A stretch of DNA of 62,881 bases, counting the filler. It is 6 parts of 6 records of this genome, joined end to end, with 100 filler letters (N's around TTAATTAATTAA, not from the genome) between each part and the next. Parts side by side here need not be neighbours in the genome. Positions count along the whole stretch, not along the records: positions 37,323 to 50,427 come from DRR723986_9399; 5 more parts are not named here. The stretch is one strand, 5' to 3'. Every line of letters starts with the position of its first letter. The stretch's first letter is position 1. Below the pieces are notes generated by a model. The model searched no databases, was not told the DNA's origin, and was given only the letters and a program-made list of their open reading frames with translations. The translations under genes were made by a program, and so were the position numbers. This document shows positions 32,901 through 50,244 of this stretch, in pieces.

Positions 32901-32950
32901 CGTTATATCTCCATTGAAATGTTTCTGACTCGCAATCTTATAGCGATTAT

Positions 32951-33069: not shown

Positions 33070-33115
33070 AAACCGATGTTTTAATTAACTCACCAACCAA
33101 CTAGGAGGTGTAAGA

Positions 33116-33400: not shown

Positions 33401-33497
33401 TTCCTGCGGCAAAGTCAACTCGTGGAGACGCAAGCGTCGGCTGGCTCGGGCTTCGAGCAGTCGACGTCCTGATCACGCTCAAGTAAATCACAGAAAA

Positions 33498-33513
33498 CTG
33501 AAACTGAACTGAA
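33498..33513. promoter_or_regulatory. Tandem direct-repeat motif CTGAA-N6-CTGAA (copy 3)
   Basis: CTGAAACTGAACTGAA; with the following TTTC it matches copy 1 at 18 of 20 nt; upstream of 33550. Confidence 0.55.
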
Positions 33514-33549
33514 TTTCTTGAACGGTTTAAGGTAATTAAGGAGAGCATC

Positions 33550-33789
33550 ATGAAAAAAATCATTATCGCTGCGGCAGCCGCCACTTTATTTTCTACAATG
33601 GCCACTGCCAATTCAGGATTGGCCGATCGAATTAATGAAGCGCGCACTTACCCGAACAAAACAGCCGACGCAAAAACCAGAATGATGACCTGCATGAAAG
33701 AAATGCAATCTCAAAAATCAATGAACGGGTCCAATGTCAATAAGCAGCAAAAAATATCAGTCAGAAACACACACCACAATCATACTTAA
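33550..33789 (+). CDS. Small secreted Met/His-rich protein
   Basis: AAGGAG RBS, signal peptide ending ATA, RMMTCMKEMQ and C-terminal HHNHT. Confidence 0.7.
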   Translation: MKKIIIAAAAATLFSTMATANSGLADRINEARTYPNKTADAKTRMMTCMKEMQSQKSMNGSNVNKQQKISVRNTHHNHT

Positions 33790-33818
33790 ATAAATCCAGC
33801 GCGTTAGAGAATAACCAG

Positions 33819-33857
33819 TAGTCGACTGTCTCTTAGAACGACAGTCGACTATTTATT
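33819..33857 (+). terminator. Rho-independent terminator
   Basis: TAGTCGACTGTC-N9-GACAGTCGACTA (12-bp stem) followed by TTTATT. Confidence 0.7.
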
Positions 33858-34052
33858 AAATATTGAAAATACAGAAAGTAATTTACTTCACTTCCACGAT
33901 GCCTCTTCATTTGGCTCTCAGAGTCAACCACCCAAGAAACATCCATTTGACAATCAGGCCCGTTATCGGTGGCAAGAAAACCCATTGTGCAAGAGGAATT
34001 ACCCCTGTGCCTGTCCATGTGACTACCGGCATTAACTCGCTATAATTCCATC

Positions 34053-34256
34053 TTAAACCTGCCGAACCATCCAGGCCTCCAGGTCCGGTTCCCAGGTCCA
34101 GTATTCGGTTTCGATACGCATGGTGAAACGGCCGTGGTTGCTGTCCGACCACAGGGTGGCCTCCATCCCCTCAATCAATGATTCCGCCGAGGGCGCACCA
34201 CCCAGCGCACTGCCCGGAAAAACACTTAGAAAAGCCACCACCCATAAGCATTTCAT
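34053..34256 (-). pseudogene. Truncated 5' fragment of an outer-membrane lipoprotein-sorting (LolA-like) gene
   Basis: AAGGAGG RBS, signal peptide, then LWSDSNHGRFTMRIETEYW...LEAWM typical of that family's N-terminus, but it stops after 67 aa. Confidence 0.5.
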
Positions 34257-34298
34257 ACGCTGGCCTCCTTGAGTTAATCGTCTGATTACCCAGAGAAA

Positions 34299-34721
34299 TC
34301 AGAGCCCACTCCTTTCAGACCATGCCTCATAGATCCGCTTGTCCCATTTGCTCTGGAAATAGGCGATAGCGGCTTTTTGATCGTCCCTGGAGAGCTCGTC
34401 TGCGAAGGCCGGCATTTTCCCACCCATGGGGGCGCCACCTTGACTAATTGTACCCATCAGCGTGTCGAAGGAATGGTGCCAGGCATGACCTGTTCCGTTG
34501 AGCGGTGGCGGCGGGTAAGAGCCATCCTTCAGAGTCTTTTTCCAATTGAAAGCGCCTTGGGCATTGCCGCCATGGCAGCTTGCGCAGTTGTCGTCGAACA
34601 CCACTGCGCCGCGCTCGACCTCAGCCTGTGTGTACCAGCGATCATCCACCGTCTGTTTACCGCAGCCGCTGATTAGTGCGACTGCAAGAACGCCTACTGA
34701 GATAGTTGCCCGATGCATCAT
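34299..34721 (-). CDS. Cytochrome c lipoprotein (copper-resistance-associated type)
   Basis: Lipobox ISG-C, CASCHG haem motif, PPPLNGTGHAWHH and axial MPAF. Confidence 0.9.
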   Translation of the reverse strand: MMHRATISVGVLAVALISGCGKQTVDDRWYTQAEVERGAVVFDDNCASCHGGNAQGAFNWKKTLKDGSYPPPPLNGTGHAWHHSFDTLMGTISQGGAPMGGKMPAFADELSRDDQKAAIAYFQSKWDKRIYEAWSERSGL

Positions 34722-34810
34722 TCTTTTTCCTCGATTTCCTTGCGCCTCAAATTCCTCAATCGCGGAATAAAACGGGGAGTTCTGGCTGCATAGGCCATCG
34801 TGTATGACAT
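34718..34810 (-). pseudogene. 30-codon remnant ORF, probably an internally deleted isoprenylcysteine-methyltransferase-family gene
   Basis: GGAGG RBS; MSYTMAYAARTPRFIPRLRNLRRKEIEEKE*; ATGA overlap with the cytochrome c start. YAARTPRFIPR resembles the C-terminus of ICMT-family proteins. Confidence 0.45.
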
Positions 34811-34834
34811 AGCTACCTCCAATGATTCAGAAGT

Positions 34835-37195
34835 TCATTGCTTTGACCCCAGTTTCACCACCCTCAAACGCAGCGCATTCACGATCACGCTGACCGAGGA
34901 CAGCGACATGGCGGCCGCTGCAAAAATGGGCGACAGCAGTATCCCGAAAAACGGGTACAAAACCCCTGCCGCTATCGGAACACCGGCGGAGTTGTAAACG
35001 AAGGCGAAAAACAGGTTCTGACGGATATTGCGCATGGTCGCCAGAGACAAACGGCGCGCCTCGACAATGCCCATCAGGTCGCCGCGTAGCAGCGTAATGC
35101 CGGCGCTTTCGATGGCGACATCGGTCCCGGTGCCCATGGCCACACCGACATCCGCCGTTGCCAGTGCAGGCGCATCGTTTACGCCGTCACCCGCCATCAC
35201 GACAACATGGCCTTCGTCTTTCAGGCGCTGGACGATCTTGCCCTTATCTTCCGGCAGGACTTCCGCTTCCACTTCGTCGATATGCAGTTTTCGGGCAACT
35301 GCTTCAGCTGAAGTGCGGTTATCGCCGGTCAGCATGACCACCCGGATGCCGTCTTTTTGCAGCGCGGAAATAGCGGCTTCGGTGGTTTCCTTGATCGGAT
35401 CGGCAATCGCCAGCAACCCTGCGACGTTTCCGTCGACAGCAGCAAAAATCACGGTAGCACCATCTTTTCGGAGCTGGTCGGCGTCGCCGTCAAATCGCGT
35501 GGTGTCGACATTTTCCGACTCCATGAGAAGGCGGTTACCAAGTAGCACCCGCTTGCCGTCTATTCGACCGGTAACCCCTTTACCATTCGGAGAGTCAAAG
35601 TCTTCCGCATCCGGAAGCTTCAGGTCCATGCCCTTGGCTTTATCGAGTATGGCGTGAGCCAGTGGGTGCTCACTGCCTTTCTCCAGGCCGCCTGCATAAC
35701 GCATGAGACTACTGTCATCGAACCCGTTGGCCGCGACAAGCCGGGTGACTTGCGGCTTGCCCTCTGTCAGCGTGCCGGTTTTATCCACCACCACGGTGTC
35801 CACCTTCTCCATACGCTCCAAGGCTTCCGCATCGCGAATCAGAACGCCACTTTGAGCACCGCGTCCGACACCCACCATGATGGACATGGGCGTCGCCAAG
35901 CCAAGTGCGCAAGGGCAGGCAATGATCAGAACACTGACCGCTGCAATCAGCCCGAACGCCATAGGCGGCGTGGGCCCGAAGAATGACCAGGCTATAAAGG
36001 CGATAATGGCGATCACGATCACCGCAGGCACAAAATAACCCGCCACCTTGTCGGCCAGGCCCTGAATGGGCGCGCGGCTGCGCTGGGCGCTCGCCACCAT
36101 CTGCACAATCTGGGACAGCATGGTGTCACGGCCAACCTTGTCGGCCCGCATGATAAAGCTGCCCTGCTGGTTGATACTGCCGCCGATCACCTGGTCGCCG
36201 GATTTTTTGCTGACTGCCAAAGGCTCACCGGTCACCATGGATTCATCCACGTTGGAGCTGCCTTCAAGCACCTCGCCGTCCAACGGCACCTTGTCTCCCG
36301 GACGCACCCGCAAGCGGTCACCGACCTTGACCTGATCAAGCGACACATCGGATTCGCTGCCATCGTCGTCCAGTTTTCTGGCCGTCGCCGGTGCCAGATC
36401 CAGCAGGGCCTTGATGGCACCAGAGGTTTTCTCTCTGGCGCGCAATTCCAGCACCTGCCCCAGCAGCACCAGCACCACGATGACAGCAGCCGCCTCGAAG
36501 TAGACGGCGACCGACCCGTCTTCCTGCCGGAAGGCGCCTGGGAAGATCTGCGGCGCCAGGGTCGCCACCAGGCTGTAGATCAGCGCGACGCCGGTACCAA
36601 TGGCAATGAGCGTAAACATGTTCAAGTTACGGCTAACCACGGATTTCCAACCCCGGACGAAGAAGGGCCAACCGCACCAGAGCACCACAGGCGTTGCCAG
36701 CACCAGTTGAATCCAGTTGGACATCTGCGGGGCTATAATGTGATCGAGTCCGGTGAGGTGCCCACCCATCTCCAGTACCAGTACAGGCAGGGCCAGCACC
36801 AGGCCGATCCAGAATCGGCGGGTCATGTCTTTGAGTTCTTCCGAAGGCCCGTCGTCCAGGCTTACCTGCTCGGGCTCTAGGGCCATGCCGCAGATTGGGC
36901 AGTCCCCTGGCCCTTGCTGCCGAATCTCGGGGTGCATGGGACAGGTATACATAGTGCCCGGCGCTACCGGCTCTTGCTGTTTCTTTTCCCAATCGAGGTA
37001 CTGCTCAGGGTCCTCGTCGAATTTGGACTGGCAACGCGACGAGCAGAAGTACCAGGTTTTACCGCCATGCTGGCTGCGGTGTTCCGCGGTATGCGGATCG
37101 ACTGCCATGCCGCAAACCGGATCCTTGGCGGTGTGCCCGCCAGGTTCTTTATCGGCGTGGTGATCGTGGTCATGGGCGTGATGGTGCTCAGCCAT
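34835..37195 (-). CDS. copA: Cu(I)-translocating P1B-ATPase with His-rich N-terminus, YHS domain and heavy-metal-binding domain
   Basis: DPVCGM (YHS), [39 protein letters not shown] and MSLSS Cu(I) motifs. Confidence 0.95.
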
Positions 37196-37519: not shown

Positions 37520-37852
37520 TTACTGATCCGAGGCAGTCAGATACTGCCTGGCAAATCCCTGCAACTCCTCCGCCACGCGCTGGCGAATAGCGGCACGATC
37601 CTGCGGATCCAGTTCGTACTTGCTTGCCAGCAGTTCGAAGTCCTCGTCTTTGAGGGTTACCGTCAGCCGCGGGCGGGCACGGCCTTTACGGTAGGGCAGG
37701 TGGAGCACCTTGCGCACCATGTCGGCGGTCGTCATATCCTGCATGGCCGCCGACACGCGAAACGCGCGCTGGATATCGTTGGACAGGTCGAAGGCCATCT
37801 GTACCGCCTGAACGGCCTGTTCTTCTCGGGACCAGTCCTGTTTCTTCGCCAT
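37520..37852 (-). CDS. Hypothetical protein, putative tandem ribbon-helix-helix DNA-binding protein
   Basis: VQMAFDL-SNDIQRAFRVSAA-MTTADMVRKVL and RLTVTL-KDEDFELLASKY each show a strand-helix(-helix) pattern. Confidence 0.6.
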   Translation of the reverse strand: MAKKQDWSREEQAVQAVQMAFDLSNDIQRAFRVSAAMQDMTTADMVRKVLHLPYRKGRARPRLTVTLKDEDFELLASKYELDPQDRAAIRQRVAEELQGFARQYLTASDQ

Positions 37853-37918: not shown

Positions 37919-38617
37919 TTACGGGTTTGCGTTGCCGCCCTTGAGGCGTGCCAACACATCGTTGACGGCATCCTGTTCGCCATCAATGCCGGCGGCTTTC
38001 AGTTTTTCGTCCAGATCTGCGCCGGTCAGCTCTTTTTCCAGGGTGGCGCTGGCGGTCTGGCGGTCTTCTTCCCGGGCCTGGCGCTCGCGAATCCGTTCCA
38101 ATGTCTCTTTCGCGGTGCTCAGGGAGGACTGCTGGCTGTTGATGTTGGTGTCAATCTGCGCGGTGGTGCGTAGCACCCGCTCGTTGGTCTTCACCACTTG
38201 CAGTTCCCGGCGGTAGTCGGCCAGCTGTTTCTCGGCTTTCTGAACTCGCTCTTTCAAGCCCACAATGCGCTGTTGCAGCAGTTCCCGGGTTTGGGTCAGC
38301 TCCGAGGCGCGGCGCTCATGGCCAACAATTCGCTCGGCCACTTCTCGGGCCAGATCTTCCTGGCCAGCCGCGATGGCTTTGCGGGCATCGTCTTCACGCT
38401 TGGCGGCGCTGTCCTGCTCGGTACGGATCTGTCGGGCCAGGGAGGCCGCTTCGGCCATCAGTGACGCCAGCTCCTGCTTGGCCTGTTTCAGCTCATGCTC
38501 GGAATCGCGCAGTTCCTGTTCCAGAATCCGGTTGCCCTGGCCGTCGACAACGGCTTCACCCAGTTCGTTCACACCCCCGCGCATGGCGGTCAGGATTTTT
38601 TTAAGTACGGTTCTCAT
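37919..38617 (-). CDS. PspA/IM30-family protein (YjfJ-like; ESCRT-III superfamily)
   Basis: Amphipathic N-terminus MRTVLKKILTAMRGG, ILEQELRD, ARKAIAAGQEDLAREVA, long coiled coil, and LDEKLKAAGI...VLARLK tail. Confidence 0.92.
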   Translation of the reverse strand: MRTVLKKILTAMRGGVNELGEAVVDGQGNRILEQELRDSEHELKQAKQELASLMAEAASLARQIRTEQDSAAKREDDARKAIAAGQEDLAREVAERIVGHERRASELTQTRELLQQRIVGLKERVQKAEKQLADYRRELQVVKTNERVLRTTAQIDTNINSQQSSLSTAKETLERIRERQAREEDRQTASATLEKELTGADLDEKLKAAGIDGEQDAVNDVLARLKGGNANP

Positions 38618-38631: not shown

Positions 38632-39036
38632 TCAAGCCAGGTAGTCTTCAAAAGTCTGTAACAGGTCGATGGCATTCTCGGCGAGGGTTACCAGTTCCTG
38701 CATGATCTCGCTGGTGCCGGACGTGGGGCTCAGTGCGCCATAGACCACATAGTGCTGGCCGGTTTTGCCAAGAGAGCTTAAGGGCATGGGAACACTGATG
38801 CGCAACATGTTTTCATGCAGCTCGTTCAGGCGTTCCGGGGCCAGTTCCTGTTCGTCGAAAAGGTACGCAAGGCACAGAATCTGGGTGTCGGTTACGGTAA
38901 TATACACCGGTGTTTCTTCGGCGCCGGACACGATCACCTGCAGCACCGGTTCTTCGCCGGCAATGGGCATGACATCGAAGGTTCGGCCAGCATGGGTGGC
39001 GTCACCCAGGGCCAGGGTGAGAGATTGGGTATCCAC
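38632..39036 (-). CDS. YjfI-family (DUF2170) protein
   Basis: ITVTDTQILCLAYLF, MPLSSLGK...YVVYGALS; AAGGAG RBS; immediately upstream of the PspA/YjfJ-type gene, as in yjfIJ. Confidence 0.82.
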   Translation of the reverse strand: MDTQSLTLALGDATHAGRTFDVMPIAGEEPVLQVIVSGAEETPVYITVTDTQILCLAYLFDEQELAPERLNELHENMLRISVPMPLSSLGKTGQHYVVYGALSPTSGTSEIMQELVTLAENAIDLLQTFEDYLA

Positions 39037-39099: not shown

Positions 39100-39180
39100 T
39101 TGACATTTTATGTCAATAATCCGAGTCTATACCTCGCAATTAAACATTTGCAAGAAATAGTTTGTTTACGTTATAAACAA
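39100..39180. promoter_or_regulatory. Divergent promoter region with two palindromes and a candidate sigma70 promoter
   Basis: TTGACAT-TTT-ATGTCAA (39100-39116); TTGTTTA-CGTTA-TAAACAA (39162-39180); TTGCAA (39148)-N18-TATAAA (39172) on the plus strand. Confidence 0.6.
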
Positions 39181-39241: not shown

Positions 39242-39868
39242 ATGGATACATTCTTTGCAATTGCCTTCTCCTTCCCCACGGTCATTTTTTCCGTATTGCT
39301 GTGCGTGGCCATCGTTTACTGGCTGATTTCCCTTGTGGGTCTGGGCGATATCGAAGCCGATGGCGATATTGATGCCTCCGGCGACTTCTCCGGCCTGATG
39401 GTAACCCTGGGGCTCCAGGGTGTCCCGCTGCCACTCGTGCTTACTCTGTTGTTCCTGATTGCCTGGTTGGCGAGCTATTTTGCGGAGCTGTTGCTCGGTG
39501 CACTGGTGCCTGATGGTTTCCTGCATGCACTGTTCGGGCTGGCGATCATCGCCGGAGCTCTGGTGATGAGTGTTCTGGTGACCGCGGTTGTTATCCGCCC
39601 ACTGCGGCCACTGTTCCGGCGGGCGTATTTACCCCCGCTTCAGAAACGTATTATCGGTACCGCTTGCGTGATTACCTCAGCAACGGTGACGGAAACCAAA
39701 GGCCGGGCAGAAGCGATTCTGGACGGTGCCCATCTGGTGCTGCAGGTCCGCAGCCATACGCCTTTGGCGCATCGCGAGCGCGCGGTGCTGATCGAACATA
39801 TTCCGGACAAGAACGCCTGGTGGGTGGTTCCGGAAGCTGAATTCCATGCCGGCGAATCGGCCGGTTAA
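39242..39868 (+). CDS. YqiJ/DUF1449-like (NfeD-related) membrane protein
   Basis: FPTVIFSVLL, acidic DIEADGDID loop, LGLQGVPLPLVLT, several TM helices and a C-terminal OB-fold-like domain; directly upstream of flotillin. Confidence 0.8.
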   Translation: MDTFFAIAFSFPTVIFSVLLCVAIVYWLISLVGLGDIEADGDIDASGDFSGLMVTLGLQGVPLPLVLTLLFLIAWLASYFAELLLGALVPDGFLHALFGLAIIAGALVMSVLVTAVVIRPLRPLFRRAYLPPLQKRIIGTACVITSATVTETKGRAEAILDGAHLVLQVRSHTPLAHRERAVLIEHIPDKNAWWVVPEAEFHAGESAG

Positions 39869-39911: not shown

Positions 39912-41915
39912 ATGGACTTATCTTGGATGATGCCAGCAATCATGACCGTCGGGGTCCTGGTTCTGCTGATACTGGGCATACTGGCCCTGTTCAAGGCGTT
40001 TTACCGCAAGGTGGACCAGGGCCAGGCCCTGATCGTGAACGACCTGTCGCCCACGCCCAAGGTGTATTTCACCGGGGCCATGGTGCTGCCGGTTATCCAC
40101 CGCGCCGAGACCATGAAAATCTCGGTCATTACCCTGGAGCTTAACCGTACCGGCAAGGAAGGGCTGATCTGTAAGGACAACCTGCGGGCCGACATTACCG
40201 TTGCCTTCTACCTGCGGGTGAATGAAACCCAGGAAGACGTGCTGCGCGTGGCCAAATCGGTGGGTGTGGGCCGTGCCTCAGACCGCGATGCCGTGAACGA
40301 GCTGTTCAATGCCAAGTTCAGTGAAGCGCTGAAGACCGTTGGCAAGAAGCTCGAGTTCATGCAGCTGTTTGAGGAGCGTCAGCGCTTCCGCGATTCCATC
40401 GTCGAGACCATCGGGGAAGACCTGAACGGTTACGTGCTGGAAGACGTGGCCATCGACTACCTGGAGCAGACGCCGAAGACCTCGCTGGATCCGAACAACA
40501 TCCTGGATTCCGAGGGCATCAAGCGGATTACCGAAATCACCGCCCTCCACAATGTGGAAACCAACCGTCTGGAGCGGGACCAGGAGCTGGAAATCCAGCG
40601 CAAAAATGTGTCGGCCCGGGAAGCGTCGCTGGAACTGGAACGCAGCCAGGCCGAAGCCGAAGCGCGCCAGCGCCGGGAAATTGAAACCCTGCAGGCCCGT
40701 GAGACTTCGGAAACCGAGCAGGTGCGTGAGCAGGAGCGGGCCCGTGCCGAAGCCGCTCGCATCAAGACGGATGAAGAACTGGCGATTGCGGACGAAAACA
40801 AGCAACGCCAGATTGAAATGGCCATGAAAGCCCGAGAGCGTGCGGTGCAGATTGAAGAAGTGCGTATTCGCCAGGCCCGGGAGCTCGAGGATGTTAACCG
40901 TGAGCGGGCGGTGGAAATCGAGCGCATTGGCATGGAAAAGGCGCTGGAAGAAGAACGCAAGGAAATTGCCGATATCACCAGCCAGCGTATTGCCGTTGAG
41001 CGCAACGTGGCGGAAGAGGAAGAGAACATCAAGGATGTTCGCAACCGTTCTGAAGCCGACCGCCTGAAGGTGAAGAAAGTGGTGGCGGCCGAAGCCGAAG
41101 CCGAGGAGCTGAAGCTGAAAGATGTGAAAGCGGCGGAAGCGGCATTTGAGCGCTCCAAGCTGGAAGCCGAGCAGGTTCGGGTTACCGCCCAGGCGGAAAT
41201 GGACGCGGCCGAGAAGAAATCGGTGGCTGATGAGAAACTGGCCCGTGGTCGCCAGGCCATGGCGGCTGCCGATGGCCTTGCCGAGGCACAGGTCAAGGAA
41301 GCTCAGGCGTCTGCTATCCGGGCTGATGGTCTGGCCCGCGCCGAGGTCAAATCGGTTACCGCCAAGGCCGATGAAGAAGCCGGCATGGCCGAGGTTCGGG
41401 TGCTTGAGCAGCGTCTGGAAACCGAAGCCATGGGTGAAGAGAAACTGGGTGTTGCCAAGGCCGATGCCCGTAAGGCTATGGTTCTGGCCGAAGCCGAAGG
41501 TGAGCAGCGCATGGGCCACGCCAAAGCCGAAGCCCGCGAAGCCATGGCCAAGGCCGAAGCGGCTGGTCTGGTTGAGAAACTCAAGGCCTACGATGGCATG
41601 TCTGAGGAATCCCGTCACTTTGAAGAGTTCCGCATGAACCTGGAAGTTCATGAGAAGGAAGTGATGGCCCAGATCGACGCCCAGAAGGCTGGCATGCTGG
41701 AAAATGGCCGGGTTATGGCTGCTGCCCTGAAAGACGCCAAGTTCGAAATGATCGGCGGCGACGGCGGCATTTTCGAGAAGTTTGCCCAGGGCCTTGGCTA
41801 CGGCAAGAGTGTTCAGGGCGTGCTGGACAAGTCCCCCTCGCTGCAGGCGGCGCTCTCGAACATTGCCGGCCGGGTGGCAGGTGAAAAGCCTAACCGCAGT
41901 TCCGAGACGGCCTGA
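39912..41915 (+). CDS. Flotillin-family (SPFH/Band-7) protein with extended coiled coil
   Basis: N-terminal TM, YRKVDQGQALIV, GLICKDNLRADITVAFYLRVN, YVLEDVAIDYLEQTP..LDPNNILDSEG, then a long EA/AEAE-rich region. Confidence 0.92.
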   Translation: MDLSWMMPAIMTVGVLVLLILGILALFKAFYRKVDQGQALIVNDLSPTPKVYFTGAMVLPVIHRAETMKISVITLELNRTGKEGLICKDNLRADITVAFYLRVNETQEDVLRVAKSVGVGRASDRDAVNELFNAKFSEALKTVGKKLEFMQLFEERQRFRDSIVETIGEDLNGYVLEDVAIDYLEQTPKTSLDPNNILDSEGIKRITEITALHNVETNRLERDQELEIQRKNVSAREASLELERSQAEAEARQRREIETLQARETSETEQVREQERARAEAARIKTDEELAIADENKQRQIEMAMKARERAVQIEEVRIRQARELEDVNRERAVEIERIGMEKALEEERKEIADITSQRIAVERNVAEEEENIKDVRNRSEADRLKVKKVVAAEAEAEELKLKDVKAAEAAFERSKLEAEQVRVTAQAEMDAAEKKSVADEKLARGRQAMAAADGLAEAQVKEAQASAIRADGLARAEVKSVTAKADEEAGMAEVRVLEQRLETEAMGEEKLGVAKADARKAMVLAEAEGEQRMGHAKAEAREAMAKAEAAGLVEKLKAYDGMSEESRHFEEFRMNLEVHEKEVMAQIDAQKAGMLENGRVMAAALKDAKFEMIGGDGGIFEKFAQGLGYGKSVQGVLDKSPSLQAALSNIAGRVAGEKPNRSSETA

Positions 41916-42004
41916 TAAGGCCGATGGCTCCCGGTACCGGACCCAAGGTGCCGGGAGTGCTTTCCCCTAACCGCATTCCCCTCTTTGGTTCAGGATGATT
42001 TGGT

Positions 42005-45000
42005 ATGTCGACGGATCGCACCGAGCTCGAAAGCATTGTTCAGGAAGGTTCAGCCTTTGAAACCATCAAGCGCCGGCTGAAAGAGCAGGGCGGGCAACTG
42101 CGTGAGCAGGTGTCCGGGCTGAACCAGGCCCGCGAAGAGATCTTTGGCAGTGCCGGCATGAACGTGCTGGGCCGGGCCCGGGTGCGAACCGAAAACAACG
42201 CCATCGCCCGGGATGTGGTGCGTCTGGGCGACAAGCTGTTGTTCGGTTTCAATCTACAGCTGGGCTTGCGCAAGACGCTGGTGATTGAGGACGTGTTCCG
42301 GCTGTACCACCTGAACGACGGCGACAGCGGCTTCGAGATGACCGAAGCGGCCATTGAGGGCTCGTTTCTCAAGGATGAACGCTTCGCCACCGACTTCCGG
42401 GAACTCCAGCAGTACTACAACACCGCCACGCTGTCGCAACTGGTGATTCTCAAAGGTATGTTGCTGATGGCGTTTCGCATCGGTGACAAACTCGATGATC
42501 TTCGGGTGTTTCGCTGGGAACTGAAGCCCGATGGTGAGGTCAGCCGCTACATTGATAATCGCGGCGAGCGCGATCTGTCTTTCCCGGAACGTTTCAGTTT
42601 TCCCTGGAAAACCGTGGGCCGCGACAGCCAGGTTCAGGGTCGCTCTCCGCACCTGAACATTGCCGACACCCTGTTTGTGGATAACCTGCGGGGCAACATT
42701 ACTTTCAAGGTGGAGAACAACACCTCCACCGGCGAAGGCATCTACTCGGACCCGGTGGAGTCCGATTCCCAGTCACTGGACGACGCCAGCTTCGATTTTG
42801 CTGATCTGGGCGAGATTCTGCTGCTGCGGATTCTGCCGTTTAACGAAGAACACTGGCGCTATTACCTGTTCAATCGCACCGAGCGCAAGGTCGAGCGGGT
42901 TGACGCCATGGCCGGTTCCGTCGCGTCGCTGCCGGACAATCACGGACTGATTTTTCCGTCGGGTTACTACCTGAGTACCGGCGAGCTGAAAACCTTCCAG
43001 ATTCCCGACGGGGATTTCCGGCTAAAGCGTACCTTGCGGGCCCCCAACGGTGAAGACATGCTGTATGTCTTCTTTGAACAGCGCACTGGTCAGGTGATCC
43101 TGTTCCGCTACAACCTGATTCGCAAACAGGCGGATGTGCCCCTGATTGGCCACGGCTACGCCCTGTTCGAAAACGGGCATCTGGTGATTTTCAATGCCGA
43201 CAAGGAACCTACGCTGGTGCACCCGTTGCAGGTGTGGGAAACGCCGTTCACTTCTGAAAGTTTCCACGCTGCGGCGAACGTCGCCAACGATTCCGAGCTG
43301 GCGCGCATTGGCAATCCCGAGCTGGTTCGGGGAATTGCCGAGCTGAATACGGTGGTTACCCTGGTGGAGGGCGCCAGCGCCAGTGAGCGGCATTTCACCA
43401 ACCTGATTCGCACCGTGGACCGTATTCTGGACCAGTTTTTCTGGCTGTCAGCGCGCCAGGAAGAAGCCCTGTTTGCCGGGTTAAACCAACAGCTCAGCAC
43501 CATCCGAGGCACCGCAGAGCTGGTGCTGGATGAGTATGAGAAAGTCCAGAGTATTCGCGCCCAGACCGAAGCTGCCATTACCGAGGTCGCTCAGGACCAG
43601 GGCGCGTTGATGCGGGACCTGAAACCGGATAGCTGGAAAGCACCGGATCAGTTTGTCAGTTACCTGGCACGTTTGCGCGATCATCGCGGCCGGGTGCGAA
43701 CTCTCAATGATCGGCGCTATGCCGACAAAGCCCGTATCGACAGTCTTGAAGAGGAGCTGGCCGAGGCCGAGGGCCGGCTGACCGAGCGCACCTTCCGTTT
43801 CCTGGCGTCGCCGGAGGCGCTGGATGGCTACCGCCAGACCCTGACCGAGTTGCAGACTGCGCTGGCCGAGGCCGACAGCCGGGATGCCCTGAAGAAGATT
43901 GTCGATCGCTATCGGGAACTGACTGAAGGCCTGGACATGATCCAGGGCATGCTGGCGTCGATGGGCGGTGACGATGCCGCGCTGGAAACGGCGATCACCG
44001 ATAACATCTCCGGCATCTACGCCACCATCAACCAGCAGCGTTCCGAAGCGGAAATCCGGCTGAAAGAGCAGGGCAGTGCGGAAGCCCGGGCCCAGTTTGC
44101 GGCTCGTATCCGGCTGTTTGAGCAGAGCCTGGCGAACGGCGTCAGCGCGCTGTCGGATGTGCGCGAATGCGATGGTCTGATGACCCGTATGCTGGATCAG
44201 CTGCAGGAGCTGGAAAGCCAGTTTGGCGAATATGACGAGTTCCTGGCAGCTATTCTGGAGCAGCGTGAGAACGCCCATGAGAGCATCGAGGCACGGCGCC
44301 AGCAGCTCCAGGATCAGCAACAGCGCCGGGTAACCACGCTCACCGATGCCGCTGCCCGTATTCTCAAGAATCTGGGCCGCCGTACCGAACGTTTCAGCAG
44401 CCCGGAAGAGCTGCATGCCTTCTTCGCCTCTGATGCCATGGTTAGCCGGTTGCGCAGCATGGCCGGTGAGTTGCGGGAGCTGGGTGCCGCCATGGAGGCG
44501 GATGATTGCCTGGGCCAGCTTAAAGCGGCTCAGGACACGGCCCTGCGCAGCGTTCGGGACAAGGCCGATATCTTTGAGGATGGCGGTGCCGTTATCCGGC
44601 TGGGCAAGCACAAGTTCAGCGTTAACCAGCGGGAGCTGGATCTGACCCTGATTCCCCGGGACGATCATGTCCTGCTGCACCTGACCGGAACCCAGTATTA
44701 CGAGCGCCTGGAGGAGCCCGAGCTGGACCGCCTCCGGGGCTACTGGAACATGAGCCAGCCTTCGGAATCCGACCGGGTGTACCGGGCGGAGTATCTGTCG
44801 GCACTGGTAATCGATGAGTTCCGCAAGGCCGGAGACCTGCCGGTTAACGTCGCGGATCTGGATGAACTGACCGGTTACATCCGCAAGTTTGCTTCGCCCC
44901 GATACCGGGAGGGCTACGAAAAAGGCATCCATGATCACGACGCAGCGCTGATAGTCAGTACGCTGTGGCCGGCGATTCAGAACGCCGGGTTGCTCCGTTT

Positions 45001-47254
45001 CAGCCCCAGGGCGAGGGCACTGGCCATGCTGTTCTGGGCCGGATTGAGCCAGCAACAGAGCGCGGGCCAGCAACTGCGTTCCCGGTGCCTGTCTGCCGGC
45101 ATCCTCAGCCGCATGATGCAGTCCGATGACCTGCTGGAATCCCTGCAACAGGAACTGGAACCGCAGCTCGCAAACTTTGTGGAAGAACAGCAATTGAGCC
45201 TGGCCGGGCCGGGCAGCGATGGTCGCAGCCTGGTGCATTCCGCAGCCCAGTACCTGGTGCGGCAGCTGGCGGAAGAATCCGAAGCCTTCGATATCACTCG
45301 CTATGCCGGGGATCTGGCGACCGGCTTTGTCGAGGCACTGAAACGGGATAACCAGTTTGCCCAGTATCAGCAGGCACTGGAGGTCGTGGCCGATCAGCCG
45401 GCTGCTCGCTGGAGCATCACCAGCCACTGGTTGAAAGCCTGGATGGCCAAGACGGATCAGCAGCATCTGCTGCACTATTTGCCAGAAGCCGTGGCCGTGC
45501 TGAATGTAGGCGACACTGTGAAAACCTCGGTTCGCAGTGTGGAACTGGCGTTCCAGATTGAGGGCCTGCTGGGCCAGCATCCCCGTATCGAAGAACGCAT
45601 TCTCAGCCTGCAGCTGGATGAATTTGACGAGCGTCTGCGATATCACCAGCAGGAGATCATTCCTGGCTGGCAGCAGCTGCAGGAGGTGCGGCAGCAGGTA
45701 CTGGAGAAATGGCGTGGCCAGTTACGGCTGGACGAGTTCAGACCACGCCCGCTGTCGTCCTTCGTACGTAACAAGCTGATCAGCGAGAGTTACCTGCCGA
45801 TCATTGGCGATAACCTGGCCAAGCAGATGGGCACGGCGGGTGAAGACCGCCGCACCGACCAGTCCGGCCTGCTGATGATGATCTCGCCCCCAGGCTACGG
45901 TAAAACCACCCTGATGGAATACGTGGCCAACCGCCTGGGTCTGATCTTCATGAAGATCAACTGCCCGAGCTTGGGTCACGACGTGATGTCGCTGGATCCG
46001 GAGAAGGCACCCCATTCCACCGCCGAAGCGGAGCTGATCAAGCTCAACCTGGCGCTGGAGATGGGCAATAACGTGATGTTGTATCTGGATGATATCCAGC
46101 ATACCCACCCCGAGTTCCTGCAGAAGTTCATCTCCCTGTGTGACGGCACGCGCCGCATTGAAGGGGTGTGGCGCGGCAAGACCAGCACCTACGACATGCG
46201 TGGCAAACGTTTCTGTGTGGTGATGGCGGGTAACCCCTACACCGAGAGCGGCGAAGTCTTCAAGGTCCCCGACATGCTCGCCAACCGGGCCGACATCTAC
46301 AACCTGGGTGACGTGCTCTCGGGCATGGAGCATGCCTTTGCGCTGTCCTACATCGAGAACAGCCTGAGCTCCAACCGGGTGCTGGCACCGCTGGCCACCC
46401 GGGGCATGGCGGACTTTTACCGGTTCGCCGATCTGGCCGAAGGCAAAACGGTGGCGGATTCGGACTTTGAACACGACTACAGTGCCGCCGAGCGCGATGA
46501 AATCGTTGCCCTGCTGAAGAAAATGATCCGGGTGCGGGAAACCGTGTTGCGGGTCAATCAGGCTTACATTGCCTCCAGCGCCCAGGCAGAAGCATACCGT
46601 ACCGAGCCCACCTTCAAGCTGCAGGGCAGCTACCGGAACATGAACAAACTGGCGGAGAAGCTGTCGCCGGTGATGAGTGACCAGGAGCTGGAAGCCCTGA
46701 TTGATGACCACTACCAGGGGGAGGCTCAGCTGCTGACCTACGGTGCCGAAGAAAACCTGCTCAAGCTCAAGCAGATGCGCGGCACCATGAACGACGACGA
46801 AGCGGCACGCTGGCAGGTCATCTGTGAAGAATACCGCCGCCGTCAGCAAGCCGGTGGCGACGAGGAAACCGGGGTGAAAGTGGTTCGCCAGCTGGGCCTG
46901 ATCTCGGAACATTTGCAGCAACTGGGGCAACAGCTGGTTGCCGGACTGGACAACGGAAAACACCCGGAACCCGATCTGGATAAAGCCCTGAGCCAGCTGT
47001 CCCGTTCCCTCGAAACCGGCCTCACCGAAGGCCTGCAATCGGTACAGCTGAATCCCGCTGTCACCGTCAACCTGGACAGCCCGCCCCAGGTGGGCGACGC
47101 GCTGATGGCCTTCGCCCGGATCTTTGAAGAATCCATTGTGCCGCTGGTGAAAACCATGGATGGCAAGCTGGACCTGGATTTGAAAACCCAGAGTGACATG
47201 AGCCGGGTGTTGCGGGTGATCCGGGAGCTGCAGGAGCGTTTGCTGGCCGGTTGA
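42005..47254 (+). CDS. 1749-aa protein: beta-rich N-terminus, long coiled coil and C-terminal AAA+ ATPase (family often labelled 'DNA repair ATPase', DUF3686-like)
   Basis: Walker A SPPGYGKTT (about 45884-45910), Walker B MLYLDDIQH, sensor-1 VVMAGN and Arg-finger-like LANRAD; no TM segment or signal peptide seen. Confidence 0.88.
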   Translation: MSTDRTELESIVQEGSAFETIKRRLKEQGGQLREQVSGLNQAREEIFGSAGMNVLGRARVRTENNAIARDVVRLGDKLLFGFNLQLGLRKTLVIEDVFRLYHLNDGDSGFEMTEAAIEGSFLKDERFATDFRELQQYYNTATLSQLVILKGMLLMAFRIGDKLDDLRVFRWELKPDGEVSRYIDNRGERDLSFPERFSFPWKTVGRDSQVQGRSPHLNIADTLFVDNLRGNITFKVENNTSTGEGIYSDPVESDSQSLDDASFDFADLGEILLLRILPFNEEHWRYYLFNRTERKVERVDAMAGSVASLPDNHGLIFPSGYYLSTGELKTFQIPDGDFRLKRTLRAPNGEDMLYVFFEQRTGQVILFRYNLIRKQADVPLIGHGYALFENGHLVIFNADKEPTLVHPLQVWETPFTSESFHAAANVANDSELARIGNPELVRGIAELNTVVTLVEGASASERHFTNLIRTVDRILDQFFWLSARQEEALFAGLNQQLSTIRGTAELVLDEYEKVQSIRAQTEAAITEVAQDQGALMRDLKPDSWKAPDQFVSYLARLRDHRGRVRTLNDRRYADKARIDSLEEELAEAEGRLTERTFRFLASPEALDGYRQTLTELQTALAEADSRDALKKIVDRYRELTEGLDMIQGMLASMGGDDAALETAITDNISGIYATINQQRSEAEIRLKEQGSAEARAQFAARIRLFEQSLANGVSALSDVRECDGLMTRMLDQLQELESQFGEYDEFLAAILEQRENAHESIEARRQQLQDQQQRRVTTLTDAAARILKNLGRRTERFSSPEELHAFFASDAMVSRLRSMAGELRELGAAMEADDCLGQLKAAQDTALRSVRDKADIFEDGGAVIRLGKHKFSVNQRELDLTLIPRDDHVLLHLTGTQYYERLEEPELDRLRGYWNMSQPSESDRVYRAEYLSALVIDEFRKAGDLPVNVADLDELTGYIRKFASPRYREGYEKGIHDHDAALIVSTLWPAIQNAGLLRFSPRARALAMLFWAGLSQQQSAGQQLRSRCLSAGILSRMMQSDDLLESLQQELEPQLANFVEEQQLSLAGPGSDGRSLVHSAAQYLVRQLAEESEAFDITRYAGDLATGFVEALKRDNQFAQYQQALEVVADQPAARWSITSHWLKAWMAKTDQQHLLHYLPEAVAVLNVGDTVKTSVRSVELAFQIEGLLGQHPRIEERILSLQLDEFDERLRYHQQEIIPGWQQLQEVRQQVLEKWRGQLRLDEFRPRPLSSFVRNKLISESYLPIIGDNLAKQMGTAGEDRRTDQSGLLMMISPPGYGKTTLMEYVANRLGLIFMKINCPSLGHDVMSLDPEKAPHSTAEAELIKLNLALEMGNNVMLYLDDIQHTHPEFLQKFISLCDGTRRIEGVWRGKTSTYDMRGKRFCVVMAGNPYTESGEVFKVPDMLANRADIYNLGDVLSGMEHAFALSYIENSLSSNRVLAPLATRGMADFYRFADLAEGKTVADSDFEHDYSAAERDEIVALLKKMIRVRETVLRVNQAYIASSAQAEAYRTEPTFKLQGSYRNMNKLAEKLSPVMSDQELEALIDDHYQGEAQLLTYGAEENLLKLKQMRGTMNDDEAARWQVICEEYRRRQQAGGDEETGVKVVRQLGLISEHLQQLGQQLVAGLDNGKHPEPDLDKALSQLSRSLETGLTEGLQSVQLNPAVTVNLDSPPQVGDALMAFARIFEESIVPLVKTMDGKLDLDLKTQSDMSRVLRVIRELQERLLAG

Positions 47255-47313: not shown

Positions 47314-48723
47314 TTACTGAGGGATGGTCTGTCCTGAAGACCGGCGCAACTGCTCCATAGCACCAAGACTGGTAAATACTTCCAGGCTACTGACTGGGCT
47401 GGCGCCTGCGTCGGCCCCGACATAGTAGTCCGGCATATCGATGGTTACGTCCTTCAGGGCCGGGTACATTACCTGGGCGATATCGCGCTGGATTTCGGCC
47501 ATGTAGATATCCCGGGCGGCCTGTTTGGCCAGCAGGTGTGCCTTGGCGACTTCGGCTTCCGCCAGGCCTTGCTCACGAATGGCTTTTGCAGCGTAGGTGG
47601 CGGCTTCGGCATTGGCTTTCTGGATGTCTCTCTCAGCAACCGAGATTTCCAGCTGCTTCTGTTTCTCCAGCACGGCTACGGCCTTTTCTTTCTCTTTGCG
47701 GACGGTTTCCAGTTCTGCCTGCTGACGCTCCATTTCCACTTCTTTCTGCTTGGAAATAATGGCCAATTCTTTGCTGCGCTGGGCGTCCTGGATGGCCCGG
47801 GCCTTCTCGATCTCTTTTTCCAGCTGCGCAGTTTTGGCTTCGGCGCGGGCGGTTTCCTGGGCCTGGATCGCGGTAATCCGCTTGGCGACCAGGTCCTTCT
47901 TTTTCACCAGCAGCTCATCCAGTCGCTTCTCGGGCAGCGGACGGCCAATGGTCACCTGGCGTACCTGAATGCCATAAGCATCCAGCGGGTTGGCAATGCG
48001 CTTGGCTTGGCCGGCGCTGTCCTGCAGGATGATGTTTTTCCAGACCAGCTGCACTTTCCGCTCCAGCCGGTCGCCGTCGTCGTTGGTTGAAGATACGGCA
48101 GCCAGGTCGGTCTGCTCCACTTCCACCTGCTGTCGCTCGGTTTCGTAAAGGCCATTCTGCAACTGGTCTTCCAGTTGAACCTTGAACTTGTTCAGACCAC
48201 CCTGGAAGAACTCTTCGCCGGTGTACTGGGTGGCGGTCACTACGGTCACGTTCTTGGCGTTCTTGATTAGCAGGGAATCGATCAGGTTGTCGTAGCTACG
48301 GAACTCACGATGCATAGCCACAATCTTTTCGGGATCTGCTGACAGTCGGAACCGGAAAGTGGCCGGAATCCGGGCGGTGTAGGTGTCAGCGAACTGCACC
48401 TCCACTTCGCCCAGCTGCCGGGTGGATTTGATCTTTTCACCACTCTCCTGGTTACCGAAACTCAGGGTCATGGCCTGATTGTAGGTATAAACGTTTGAGA
48501 AGAACGGTACCTTGAAGTGCAGGCCGGGCTCGGTGAACACGCGGATGGTGCCAAACAGGGTGTCCTGAACCACATAGGTGTAGCCCAGCTCCGTGGTAAA
48601 AAAGGAAGACATGGCCAGGAAGACCGCGAACAGCGAGCTTGCGATGGCCAACAGATATTTTTTCAGATTATTCAGAACAGCAGAGAGCAGTTTCTCTGTC
48701 CGTGAGATTGCCGGGGCGTCCAT
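47314..48723 (-). CDS. Second SPFH/Band-7 domain protein with C-terminal coiled coil
   Basis: TM helix, GYTYVVQ..FGTIRVFTEPGLHFKVPFF, YGIQVRQVTI, and a K/E/A-rich tail with REQGLAEAE. Confidence 0.82.
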   Translation of the reverse strand: MDAPAISRTEKLLSAVLNNLKKYLLAIASSLFAVFLAMSSFFTTELGYTYVVQDTLFGTIRVFTEPGLHFKVPFFSNVYTYNQAMTLSFGNQESGEKIKSTRQLGEVEVQFADTYTARIPATFRFRLSADPEKIVAMHREFRSYDNLIDSLLIKNAKNVTVVTATQYTGEEFFQGGLNKFKVQLEDQLQNGLYETERQQVEVEQTDLAAVSSTNDDGDRLERKVQLVWKNIILQDSAGQAKRIANPLDAYGIQVRQVTIGRPLPEKRLDELLVKKKDLVAKRITAIQAQETARAEAKTAQLEKEIEKARAIQDAQRSKELAIISKQKEVEMERQQAELETVRKEKEKAVAVLEKQKQLEISVAERDIQKANAEAATYAAKAIREQGLAEAEVAKAHLLAKQAARDIYMAEIQRDIAQVMYPALKDVTIDMPDYYVGADAGASPVSSLEVFTSLGAMEQLRRSSGQTIPQ

Positions 48724-48924: not shown

Positions 48925-50244
48925 ATGAAGTTACGCGTTATCGCAAGTGTGGTGTTGAGTACTCTGATGGCCGGAGCCGCCAATGCCACACCAGGCTGGC
49001 ATGATGAACGTCAGTGGATGCCGCCTGGGCTGGAAAAGGCATGGCACGATCACCGGGGGCATAAGGGTTGGCACAAGTATCAGGGCAAGCCATCGGTTCA
49101 GGTGGGCGCGAGGCCGTACTGGTTGGTTGAGGATATGGATGACGGCCCGCTCAAGGAACGTCTCAATAGCTGTGACGTGCGCAACTTCCAGGCTACGGAC
49201 TTCTCGATTGGCCACCGGGGAGCGCCCCTGCAGTTCCCGGAACATACCCGGGAGTCCTACATCGCCGCCGCCAGGATGGGCGCTGGCATTCTGGAGTGTG
49301 ATGTTGCTTTCACCAAGGATCGCGAGCTGGTGTGTCGCCACGCCCAGAATGATCTGCACACCACCACCAACATTGTCACCATTCCGGAATTGAACGCGAA
49401 GTGTACCCAGCCGTTCGTCCCTGCTGATCCGGCATCCGGCACTCCGGCCAAGGCTGAATGCCGGACCAGTGACATCACCCTGGCGGAGTTCAAGACCCTC
49501 GAGGGTAAGATGGACGCCTACGATCCGATGGCGACCACACCGGAAGAGTATGTCGGCGGCACTGCTGACTGGCGCACCGATCTGTATGCCAGCCGGGGCA
49601 CCTTGATGACCCACCGCGAGAGTATAGAGCTGTTCAAGTCACTGGGCGCCAAGTTCACACCGGAGCTTAAAACGCCAGTGGTCGATATGCCGTTTGAGGG
49701 CGAGTACAGCCAGCGGGACTACGCCCGTCAGATGATTCAGGATTACATCGACGCTGGCATTAACCCGAAAGATGTGTGGCCGCAATCGTTTAGCCTGGAC
49801 GACGTACTCTTCTGGGTGAATGAAATGCCGCGCTTTGGTGAACAGGCAGTGTTTCTGGATCAGTCGCCGATCACGCCGGATACAGAGTCTCTGGCGCACA
49901 TGGAAAGCCTGAAGTCACGGGGCGTGAACATTCTGGCGCCAGCGCTCTGGAAAATGCTGGCGCTGGATAGTTATGGCGAGATTGAACCGTCTGAGTATGC
50001 CCGCAATGCCCGCATGGCTGGTCTTGATCTGATCGCCTGGACCGTCGAGCGTAGTGGTCCCCTGGCAAATGGCGGTGGCTGGTATTACCAGACAGTTTCG
50101 GATGCCATCAATAACGACGGCGATGTCATGAATGTGATTGATGTGCTGGCTCGGGAGGTGGGCGTCATTGGTGTGTTTTCGGACTGGCCGGCCACGACCA
50201 CCTATTACGCCAACTGCATGATGAACCCGAAAGGGCGCCGTTAG
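48925..50244 (+). CDS. Periplasmic glycerophosphodiester phosphodiesterase
   Basis: Signal peptide, [32 protein letters not shown] and GVFSDWP. Confidence 0.92.

Follow-up and report, generated by a model that had tools for sequence, protein, structure and literature searches.

A DUF3686-family AAA+ ATPase named 'DNA repair ATPase' in databases is encoded in a conserved flotillin/NfeD/PspA neighbourhood

Introduction

PspA/Vipp1 proteins and flotillins are the main membrane-repair and membrane-organising scaffolds of bacteria. A conserved ATPase gene that is linked to flotillin, and often to PspA, is an obvious candidate for assembling or dismantling such scaffolds. Here, we describe one such gene, coding for a DUF3686-family AAA+ ATPase at 42005..47254 (+) of a stretch of 62,881 nucleotides, which we call the window. 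The window consists of six joined records of one genome, whose order need not be that of the genome; positions 37,323 to 50,427, and with them the ATPase gene, come from record DRR723986_9399.

The closest described systems are known from operon-level work. Ravi et al. (2024) described computationally a CesT/Tir-PspA-YqiJ-flotillin operon that matches the operon of the ATPase, reported shorter operons without PspA as well, and proposed ATP-dependent remodelling for PspA-AAA+ pairs (PMC11237479). In Pseudomonas aeruginosa, Wallart et al. (2024) found bacABCDEF to be one transcript, with BacB to BacF up 6- to 13-fold in a bacA mutant, and bacA and bacB mutants were weaker in biofilm formation, rhamnolipid production and virulence; passages of that paper give no domain assignment for BacE (PMC10948618). 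A paper from 2026 identifies PA14_16160 as a short NfeD protein and PA14_16180 as the SPFH protein PaFlo3, and treats the pairing of SPFH proteins with AAA+ and NfeD partners as a recurrent theme (PMC13086221). Our literature search returned no paper on DUF3686 (PF12458), nor one on a 'DNA repair ATPase' together with flotillin.

This comparison places the ATPase as an unremarkable orthologue within an AAA+ family that is widespread, already catalogued and described at the operon level. It is not a DNA repair enzyme, and the database name is wrong. Spread over thousands of records, this unsupported name misdirects inference that is based on annotation.

Results and Discussion

Identification of the gene and its family

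The open reading frame (ORF) begins with ATG, carries an AGGA-type ribosome-binding site 7-13 nt 5' of the start and runs for 1749 codons (1749 aa), as a preliminary description of the window, made from the sequence alone, had stated; it is a real gene. Antisense ORFs of 721 and 438 aa overlap it, which is unsurprising in DNA of about 60% G+C, and the plus-strand frame is the gene. Residues 32-479 match Pfam DUF3686 (PF12458) with E 7.7e-171 and 569 bits against a cut-off of 25, covering profile positions 2-448 of 448, and residues 604-688 match DUF7902 (E 8e-19). Nothing in NCBIfam scored above any cut-off, and a sequence search of the whole protein against the PDB gave a best E of only 0.07. 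Neither Pfam nor NCBIfam placed a nuclease, helicase or protease family in the ATPase. Since no Kyte-Doolittle window of 19 residues exceeded 1.6, no transmembrane segment is predicted either; on both counts the absence noted earlier by eye was borne out.

The family is large. A word-indexed protein search returned at least 8000 homologues, and residues 1151-1749, compared with 1.84 billion cluster representatives, found 933 matches at E<=1e-3, 711 at E<=1e-10 and 385 at E<=1e-30. The closest among the matches listed were Marinobacter proteins with the product name 'DNA repair ATPase', and a locus of Marinobacter nauticus DSM 50418 (L043) is 99% identical across the part used as query. At least 589 relatives are encoded among the 600 pattern-matching stretches listed from a collection with one genome per species. 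Copies on large plasmids or secondary replicons occur in 13 PLSDB records, pQBR103 among them. When the Providencia orthologue was searched by blastn against 5,426 complete E. coli genomes, no match was obtained at this DNA-level sensitivity. A search for fused forms showed DUF7902 and the AAA module in all ten long, fragmentary or odd-length representatives scanned, with no extra domain in any of them; DUF3686 is absent or partial in P0145, P0138 and P0232, which are N-terminally truncated or aberrant representatives. The ATPase of the window has everything by which the family is recognised: PF12458, DUF7902 with a single C-terminal AAA domain, the signature motifs (SPPGYGKT, DDIQH, AGNPYTE, PDMLANRAD and QGSYRNMNK), and a position downstream of flotillin and YqiJ/short-NfeD genes.

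Comparison with the bac operon

The window shares its Pfam domains, signature motifs and gene order with the operon of Ravi et al. and with the P. aeruginosa bac operon. The forward primer for the bacD/bacE junction maps to the 3' end of the flotillin gene with 0-2 mismatches in nine related Pseudomonas loci, and the reverse primer, which encodes the conserved motif TENNC, falls some 200 nt into the DUF3686 gene, with 1 mismatch in the two loci L026 and L044. Judged by primer mapping and synteny, BacE (PA14_16190) is very probably the orthologue of the ATPase. Unlike the bac operon, the window has a divergent DUF2170-PspA pair, an arrangement also found in 5 of the 37 loci with such a pair. 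A sigma-54 site is predicted for bacA, whereas the divergent intergenic region of the window contains no match to the sigma-54 consensus at up to 2 mismatches, and the window-wide count of such matches lies below the shuffle mean. Finally, no PLD or rhomboid gene follows the ATPase in the window.

Conservation of the operon

Gene neighbourhoods were compared in the best 80 of at least 589 relatives, most of them from Pseudomonadota; from other phyla came a few loci and plasmid records. Upstream counts refer to the 64 loci with at least 4.5 kb of upstream sequence and to neighbours within 5.5 kb, downstream counts to the 72 loci with at least 2.5 kb. The flotillin gene lies directly upstream of the ATPase gene, on the same strand, in all 64 loci, with a median gap of 98 nt (89 nt from stop to start in the window). 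A YqiJ-like gene is present in 63 of the 64 and shares the strand in all 63. The linkage of the ATPase to flotillin and YqiJ is essentially obligate, and it holds in several phyla. PspA adjoins in 37 loci and DUF2170 likewise in 37, each of them 32 times on the strand of the ATPase; 27 loci have no adjacent PspA or DUF2170, and no search for PspA elsewhere in those genomes was made. Downstream, a PLD-type hydrolase (16/72), a rhomboid protein (13/72) and a zinc-ribbon protein (6/72) recur, as does a 460-aa gene on the opposite strand (12/72) that matches no Pfam family. In several Pseudomonas chromosomes, the rhomboid and PLD-type genes together follow the ATPase (L012 12697..13953).

The named recurrent clusters over all 80 loci were YqiJ-like, flotillin, DUF2170, PspA, PLD, rhomboid, zinc ribbon and ribbon-helix-helix (RHH). 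All conserved partners are proteins of the membrane or of membrane scaffolds, and no nuclease, DNA-binding or recombination gene stands among the conserved neighbours. The preliminary description had expected the protein to reach membrane complexes, with flotillin and PspA mentioned solely as partners for an assay, and the near-obligate flotillin and YqiJ/NfeD-like neighbours, together with the frequent PspA, agree with such an association.

Outside the Pseudomonadota, the annotated order is hypothetical, flotillin, ATPase in Streptomyces; Tir chaperone, PspA, DUF1449, hypothetical, ATPase in Hymenobacter; and two hypotheticals followed by the ATPase in Deinococcus. On the Pseudomonas fluorescens megaplasmid pQBR103 (L081 1..11226), the genes run rhomboid, DUF2491, DUF350, DUF1190, glutathionylspermidine synthase, hypothetical, SPFH, ATPase; this stretch joins both PspA-associated operon types of Ravi et al. 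and itself contains no PspA. A Hymenobacter plasmid (L083) carries at 601..1386 a LexA-family regulator of the helix-turn-helix (HTH) plus S24 peptidase type, divergent from the Tir-PspA-DUF1449-flotillin-ATPase operon, and the Dokdonia row of Ravi et al. lists 'CHTH+Protease' (PMC11237479). This regulator may be specific to lineages of the Bacteroidota, and it is the only hint of an SOS-type link.

Active site

In canonical P-loops, the consensus is [AG]-x4-G-K-[ST], and the Glu of Walker B is catalytic. The ATPase deviates at both places. Walker A, SPPGYGKT (residues 1294-1301; 45884..45907, +), has Ser in place of the first Gly, and Walker B, MLYLDDIQH (1358-1366; 46076..46102, +), has Asp-Asp in place of Asp-Glu. 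They are followed by VVMAGN (1405-1410; 46217..46234, +), which comprises most of strand beta4 (modelled at 1403-1409) and the sensor-1 residue N1410, and by LANR (1425-1428; 46277..46288, +), whose R1428 ends helix alpha4 (1423-1428) just before the strand at 1430-1433. All four motifs had been read correctly in the preliminary description, and the two Walker motifs are the only ones situated in a P-loop fold. Other matches to P-loop or Walker B patterns (ADLAEGKT at 1475, LVLDE at 506 and LVIDE at 934) fall in helical regions of the models and were rejected.

For conservation, the AAA regions of the query and of 149 representatives of 50%-identity clusters were aligned, and counts are given relative to the residues present. 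The first Walker A position (S1294) is Ser in 137/139 and the Walker A lysine (K1300) is Lys in 138/139. The first Walker B aspartate (D1362) is kept in 148/149, and the second (D1363) in 146/149, with N, A and G once each and never Glu. The residues that follow, I1364, Q1365 and H1366, are unchanged in 146-148 of 150; N1410 is Asn in 148/150 and R1428 is Arg in 149/150. In nine distant loci, among them Streptomyces, Hymenobacter, Deinococcus, two Myxococcota, metagenome-assembled genomes of an acidobacterium (Acidobacteriota) and a zetaproteobacterium (Zetaproteobacteria), and Phytomonospora, the motifs are equal letter for letter, and QGSYRNMNK is kept in all nine. Across 41 orthologues (alignment A3), identity to the window copy is 65-87% for the AAA module; the two protein halves as wholes reach only 23-68%, far below the module. 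In these alignments, the Ser and Asp-Asp substitutions, which the preliminary description had singled out as non-canonical, are a fixed family signature and not noise. We found no published source for this observation in the literature. Asp-Asp Walker B motifs also occur in some AAA+ proteins that hydrolyse ATP, for instance DnaA. The fixed pair and the fixed Ser offer a handle on how this lineage tunes hydrolysis.

The remaining hallmarks of an AAA+ enzyme are in place, with a P-loop lysine, an acidic Walker B pair, a polar sensor-1 residue, a helix-4 arginine, and both core and lid. By its position in the model, R1428 would be the arginine finger, and its near-invariance at that site implies an active site shared between subunits and dependent on oligomerisation. 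In the lid, GSYR (1541-1544; 46625..46636, +) contains R1544, which corresponds to the invariant R694 of alignment A2 and is a candidate for sensor 2 by its modelled position.

Domain architecture

Two AlphaFold2 models, built on alignments of 76 rows, together span the whole protein: residues 1-850 (mb4e56223eb44) with a predicted local distance difference test score (pLDDT) of 90.4 and a predicted template-modelling score (pTM) of 0.70, and residues 851-1749 (m462a9d56ef18) with a pLDDT of 91.0 and a pTM of 0.80. In the models, the domain order is an N-terminal helix, a seven-bladed propeller, a helical stalk, a middle domain, one AAA+ module and a helical tail.

The long N-terminal helix occupies residues 5-47 (42017..42145, +; modelled as helices 5-14 and 16-47). 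The propeller at residues 53-412 (42161..43240, +) is the core of the Pfam family DUF3686 and is predicted with 28 strands as seven four-strand blades, mostly at pLDDT above 90. A Foldseek search of the N-terminal half against the PDB returned the WD40 propellers WDR5 and RACK1 with a target-normalised TM-score of 0.37; propeller-plus-solenoid proteins such as IFT-A and nucleoporins had E of about 1e-8 but a TM-score of about 0.1. The beta-rich N-terminus with its propeller-like periodicity has thereby received a predicted fold.

The stalk follows at residues 437-850 (43313..44554, +), with modelled helices of 50-58 residues, and includes DUF7902 (604-688; 43814-44068, +). The middle region, residues 851-1239 (44555..45721, +), is modelled at a pLDDT of 91 and belongs to no known family, with no Pfam match and no usable match in the ESM Atlas; it comprises a small beta domain (863-901), an all-helical domain (927-1170), a small sheet (1174-1203) and a 37-residue connecting helix (1204-1240). 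In the models, helices extend over 437-850 and then on to about residue 1275, and stalk and middle domain together make up about 800 residues. The preliminary description had called these helices heptad-rich. This holds for single helices, as the 3.5-residue hydrophobic periodicity beat all or nearly all of 500 shuffles at 488-538, 547-601, 1204-1275 and 1600-1749, but not for the block 437-850 as a whole, where 57% of the shuffles reached the same value.

The AAA+ module at residues 1286-1600 (45860..46804, +) is defined by Pfam, AlphaFold2, Foldseek and conservation alike and consists of an alpha/beta core, a pre-sensor-1 beta-hairpin and a helical lid. Its core strands are modelled at 1290-1293, 1314-1319, 1357-1362, 1403-1409 and 1430-1433, and the two-strand hairpin (1384-1397) precedes strand 4. 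Neither model contains a second P-loop domain, in keeping with the single module reported before. The C-terminal helical tail, residues 1601-1749 (46805..47251, +), has strong heptad periodicity, is modelled with lower confidence and ends in a 55-residue helix; it varies among orthologues, many of which align only to about residue 1640.

AAA+ lineage

With regard to the lineage, AAA_5 is the Pfam model with the longest coverage (residues 1290-1413, profile 2-125 of 139), though its score is marginal (24.3 bits against a cut-off of 22), and other AAA models score close to it (AAA 26.7 and AAA_22 28.3 bits). Foldseek matched the C-terminal half to MCM, RuvB, CbbQ2 and NorQ with E of about 1e-5 and 11-18% identity, at probability 1.00 for MCM, RuvB and NorQ. 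The best target-normalised TM-scores were those of NorQ (9qh6_B, 0.58) and CbbQ2 (6l1q_A, 0.46), but the E-values of MCM and RuvB were equal or better; as the 899-residue model was searched whole, query-normalised scores are lowered. In the PDB, the matches of a 42-sequence AAA profile were confined to the P-loop and strand 2 of NVL, Rix7, p97 and RuvB (E 1e-4 to 1e-2). The nearest ESM Atlas clusters to the module all carry AAA and AAA_5, which is generic and serves as a lead only.

AAA modules of the classical clade lack a pre-sensor-1 hairpin. The hairpin predicted here, with strands at 1384-1389 and 1392-1397 between helix 3 and strand 4, therefore sets the module outside that clade and fits the group with RuvB, MCM and MoxR. 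What we take to be MoxR-like motifs are NP....G....P..L..R after sensor 1 and G-S-x-R in the lid. The likeness to MoxR proteins (NorQ, CbbQ, RavA) consists of the best target-normalised structural fit, the longest coverage by AAA_5 and the pre-sensor-1 hairpin. The ATPase differs from them in being about five times larger, in its Ser Walker A and Asp-Asp Walker B, in an identity of 13-16%, and in having no modelled helix-2 beta-hairpin; before helix 2, the model shows only a near-invariant 14-residue loop (1324-1337) without strands. Furthermore, no VWA/MIDAS partner occurs among the named recurrent neighbour clusters of the 80 loci, in which not every neighbour was scanned with Pfam, and no McrC-like nuclease is found among the conserved neighbours. 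The MoxR/dynein/McrB-like clade proposed in the preliminary description is therefore at most the nearest label: AAA_5 coverage, the NorQ/CbbQ2 fit and the modelled hairpin agree with it, and the MCM and RuvB E-values, the lack of a helix-2 hairpin in the model and the missing VWA partner do not.

Function of the ATPase

Since the ATPase always lies beside membrane-scaffold genes, it most likely powers membrane maintenance, and we consider it very likely that it works in a flotillin/NfeD/PspA membrane module in one way or another. The core of this module would be a short-NfeD/YqiJ membrane protein, a flotillin-type SPFH scaffold and the DUF3686-family AAA+ ATPase, often joined by PspA/IM30 and its chaperone-like partner DUF2170. 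Within it, the ATPase may be the nucleotide-hydrolysing subunit at the cytoplasmic membrane, assembling into a ring through its AAA+ module, with the propellers on their helical stalks docking either on PspA or on the cytoplasmic flotillin/NfeD assembly. The preliminary description had suggested a ring and long arms towards membrane complexes, and the architecture is compatible with both. ATP turnover could then remodel, assemble or dismantle the scaffolds during membrane stress. This account of an ATP-driven remodeller of a membrane-stress module is drawn by analogy with HflK/C-FtsH and ESCRT-III-Vps4, and in our judgement it has about as much chance of being right as of being wrong. For the narrower claim that the ATPase acts directly on the scaffolds, we would put the likelihood somewhat below that.

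HflK/C-FtsH and the SPFH-NfeD cages (QmcA-YbbJ) resemble the present module in combining an SPFH scaffold with an AAA+ machine and an NfeD-type partner. FtsH, however, is a protease anchored in the membrane, and its AAA module is classical, whereas the ATPase is soluble, has no protease domain and possesses a propeller and stalk. In AAA+ unfoldases that thread their substrates, an aromatic pore loop lies between strand 2 and helix 2. The corresponding segment of the ATPase is near-invariant and non-aromatic (LGH.V.SLDP..AP), so MoxR-like local remodelling would be expected rather than full unfolding. A more far-reaching version, which we hold to be tentative and probably too strong, is that the energy source so far missing for the dynamics of bacterial membrane scaffolds is a ring ATPase found in seven or more phyla, with propeller-tipped arms that grasp cytoplasmic flotillin/NfeD cages and a motor that dismantles or reloads polymers of flotillin and PspA. 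If true, bacteria would have in this family an analogue of Vps4 or NSF whose active-site chemistry, with fixed Ser and Asp-Asp, is its own. A complex prediction of the SPFH domain (36-235) and the C-terminal domain (545-667) of flotillin with ATPase residues 1-480, run without alignments or controls, gave a score of 0.00 and a mark of 0.34 and has no bearing on binding.

Several points weigh against the remodeller. Deletion of paFlo3 in P. aeruginosa reduced biofilm by only about 20% and caused no strong stress phenotype (PMC13086221), so the module may act only under conditions not yet found. With PspA and DUF2170 not adjacent in 27 of the 64 loci, PspA cannot be a universal target, and in the window itself the two genes are transcribed divergently, outside the ATPase operon. 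With Asp where the catalytic Glu would stand, hydrolysis may be slow, a property better suited to a switch than to a motor, and the AAA+ module has no aromatic pore loop. Contact of the ATPase with flotillin, YqiJ or PspA, its oligomeric state and its hydrolysis are presumed, and a conserved order of genes speaks for a common function but says nothing of the mechanism.

Among the alternatives, one narrows the target to PspA: the ATPase would be a counterpart of Vps4 that recycles PspA polymers, which have the ESCRT-III fold, and flotillin and YqiJ would merely provide the platform. PspA and DUF2170 adjoin in 37/64 loci and in the window, P. aeruginosa regulates BacB (PspA) and BacE together (PMC10948618), and remodelling driven by ATP is what Ravi et al. 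put forward for PspA-AAA+ pairs (PMC11237479). Moreover, a review from 2025 states that a Vps4-like ATPase appears to be absent in bacteria, which leaves this role vacant (PMC7619361). The likeness to Vps4 and ESCRT-III (Snf7/CdvB) thus lies in an AAA+ ATPase linked to a gene of the ESCRT-III superfamily and a proposed turnover of polymers at membranes. However, an adjacent PspA is absent in 27/64 loci and flotillin in none, so that the PspA linkage is facultative and the flotillin linkage obligate. Pfam detects no MIT domain, and the modelled pre-sensor-1 hairpin is unlike the classical clade of Vps4, which belongs to a different AAA+ lineage. We consider this reading unlikely.

Improbable to a similar degree is a MoxR-like maturation chaperone, which would act on a client membrane protein or complex within the flotillin microdomain and not on the scaffolds. 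The coverage by AAA_5, the target-normalised fits of NorQ and CbbQ2, the AAA_5 lead from the ESM Atlas and the non-aromatic pore segment would all suit it, but the model lacks the helix-2 hairpin, the named neighbour clusters include no VWA/MIDAS partner, and no client recurs beyond flotillin, YqiJ, PspA and DUF2170.

There is also a small likelihood that the ATPase performs no mechanical work and is a nucleotide-gated scaffold or tether, in which slow hydrolysis at the Asp-Asp site switches a multi-armed bridge between flotillin cages, PspA and the membrane. The replacement of the catalytic Glu by Asp in 146/149 sequences, never Glu, speaks for it, as do a helical stalk and middle domain that together measure roughly 800 residues, and a propeller of the kind typical of interaction platforms. 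Near-invariant arginine-finger, sensor-1 and candidate sensor-2 positions are, however, expected if hydrolysis matters, and hydrolysing ATPases with an Asp-Asp Walker B exist as well.

That the ATPase belongs to an anti-phage or other conflict system on mobile DNA is very improbable. Defence systems often contain large NTPases of several domains, and the 13 PLSDB records, pQBR103 included, place copies on large plasmids or secondary replicons; yet 10 of the 13 are typed as non-mobilizable, the largest measure 4.1 to 11.9 Mb, PADLOC models match none of the ATPase, flotillin, YqiJ-like and second SPFH proteins, and in the window the surroundings are copper efflux and polysaccharide synthesis genes and no defence island, with no nuclease or effector domain.

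Hardly credible at all is the database label itself, an SMC/Rad50/RecN-like DNA repair ATPase as named in the Pfam description and NCBI product names: long helical regions plus an NTPase, a 17-bit NCBIfam match to SMC_prok_A in the helical region 512-692, the structural similarity of the AAA core to RuvB and MCM, among others, and the LexA-family regulator beside the Hymenobacter operon can be cited for it, but the cut-off of that SMC model is 729.4 bits and only helices match, the RuvB and MCM matches at 11-18% identity are explained by the common AAA+ fold, the two Walker motifs are separated by 64 residues within a single C-terminal AAA+ domain and do not belong to a split ABC head whose halves the helices separate, the N-terminus is a propeller, the conserved neighbours include no nuclease, DNA-binding or recombination gene or kleisin-type partner, and no source for the name was found in the literature. 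The preliminary description had already called the label unsupported, and Pfam, NCBIfam, Foldseek and the neighbourhood give no basis for it; the structure searches revealed no SMC/Rad50 or nuclease architecture.

Neighbouring genes and other features of the window

The first plus-strand gene of the operon codes for a YqiJ/DUF1449 short-NfeD-like protein of 208 aa with several membrane spans (39242..39868, +). Three hydrophobic stretches are visible by eye in its sequence, two of which are among the hydropathy windows listed, and BLASTP matched it to a Hymenobacter protein annotated as DUF1449 (E 4e-8). The flotillin-type SPFH protein of 667 aa directly upstream of the ATPase (39912..41915, +) has an N-terminal transmembrane segment (1-34), a Band_7 domain and a long Ala/Glu-rich helix. 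Residues 1-235 alone match Band_7 with E 8.1e-11; the full-length protein (P0002) has no Pfam match even at E 10, since the Ala/Glu-rich helix probably trips the bias filter of HMMER. In the PDB, neither the protein nor its 63-sequence profile found a match. The flotillin is thus a trap for automatic annotation, and its orthologues in Hymenobacter and Deinococcus are named 'hypothetical protein'. In the gap between flotillin and ATPase, a 7-bp GC-rich inverted repeat (CTCCCGG...CCGGGAG, 16-nt loop, 41928..41957) is not followed by a T-run and could be an mRNA-stability or attenuation element.

On the minus strand, DUF2170 (YjfI/BacA, CesT/Tir-like chaperone fold; 38632..39036, -, Pfam E 3.5e-33) is divergent from the operon and is followed by the PspA/IM30-family gene of the YjfJ/BacB type (37919..38617, -, Pfam E 1.3e-43). 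Just downstream of pspA lies a 110-aa RHH-like gene (37520..37852, -), whose RHH_10 match (E 0.0044) is below the cut-off; in 7/64 loci, a homologue is found up to 5.5 kb upstream of the ATPase gene. The 205-nt divergent intergenic region contains a perfect 6-5-6 palindrome, TTGACA TTTTA TGTCAA (39100..39116), identical in the Marinobacter loci L001 and L043. It overlaps a -35-like hexamer, which makes it a possible operator, and the RHH-like protein could be a local regulator that binds it. Between 37300 and 49000, a promoter scan gave 3 promoter-like sites against a shuffle mean of 3.3, none of them intergenic, and a terminator scan gave 17 terminator-like sites against 10.8 in shuffles (sd 3.4). 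Rfam and tRNA scans of the window returned nothing.

Right after the ATPase, a second SPFH/Band_7 protein of 469 aa is encoded convergently (47314..48723, -), followed by a glycerophosphodiester phosphodiesterase (GDPD; 48925..50244, +). These two genes recur in only 1/80 and 3/80 loci, respectively, and are therefore outside the conserved module. On the upstream side, the window contains a copper/silver resistance cluster (30280..37195) that codes for a CopA-type P-type ATPase (YHS, HMBD), a CusB-like fusion protein that also carries HMBD and an outer-membrane efflux protein; a small cytochrome-c-like ORF belongs to the cluster as well. The G+C content falls to 0.48 at 32001-34000. Three ORFs of the window resemble gene fragments. 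One (4687..5763, -; 358 aa) codes for the C-terminal propeller repeats of GyrA alone and abuts an ORF of 244 aa that represents an N-terminal piece of a class I aminoacyl-tRNA synthetase (6026..6760, -), and an AcrB/CusA-family ORF (28526..30283, -) covers profile positions 1-564 of 1021 only. Together, these fragments suggest rearrangement breakpoints, pseudogenes or an assembly join.

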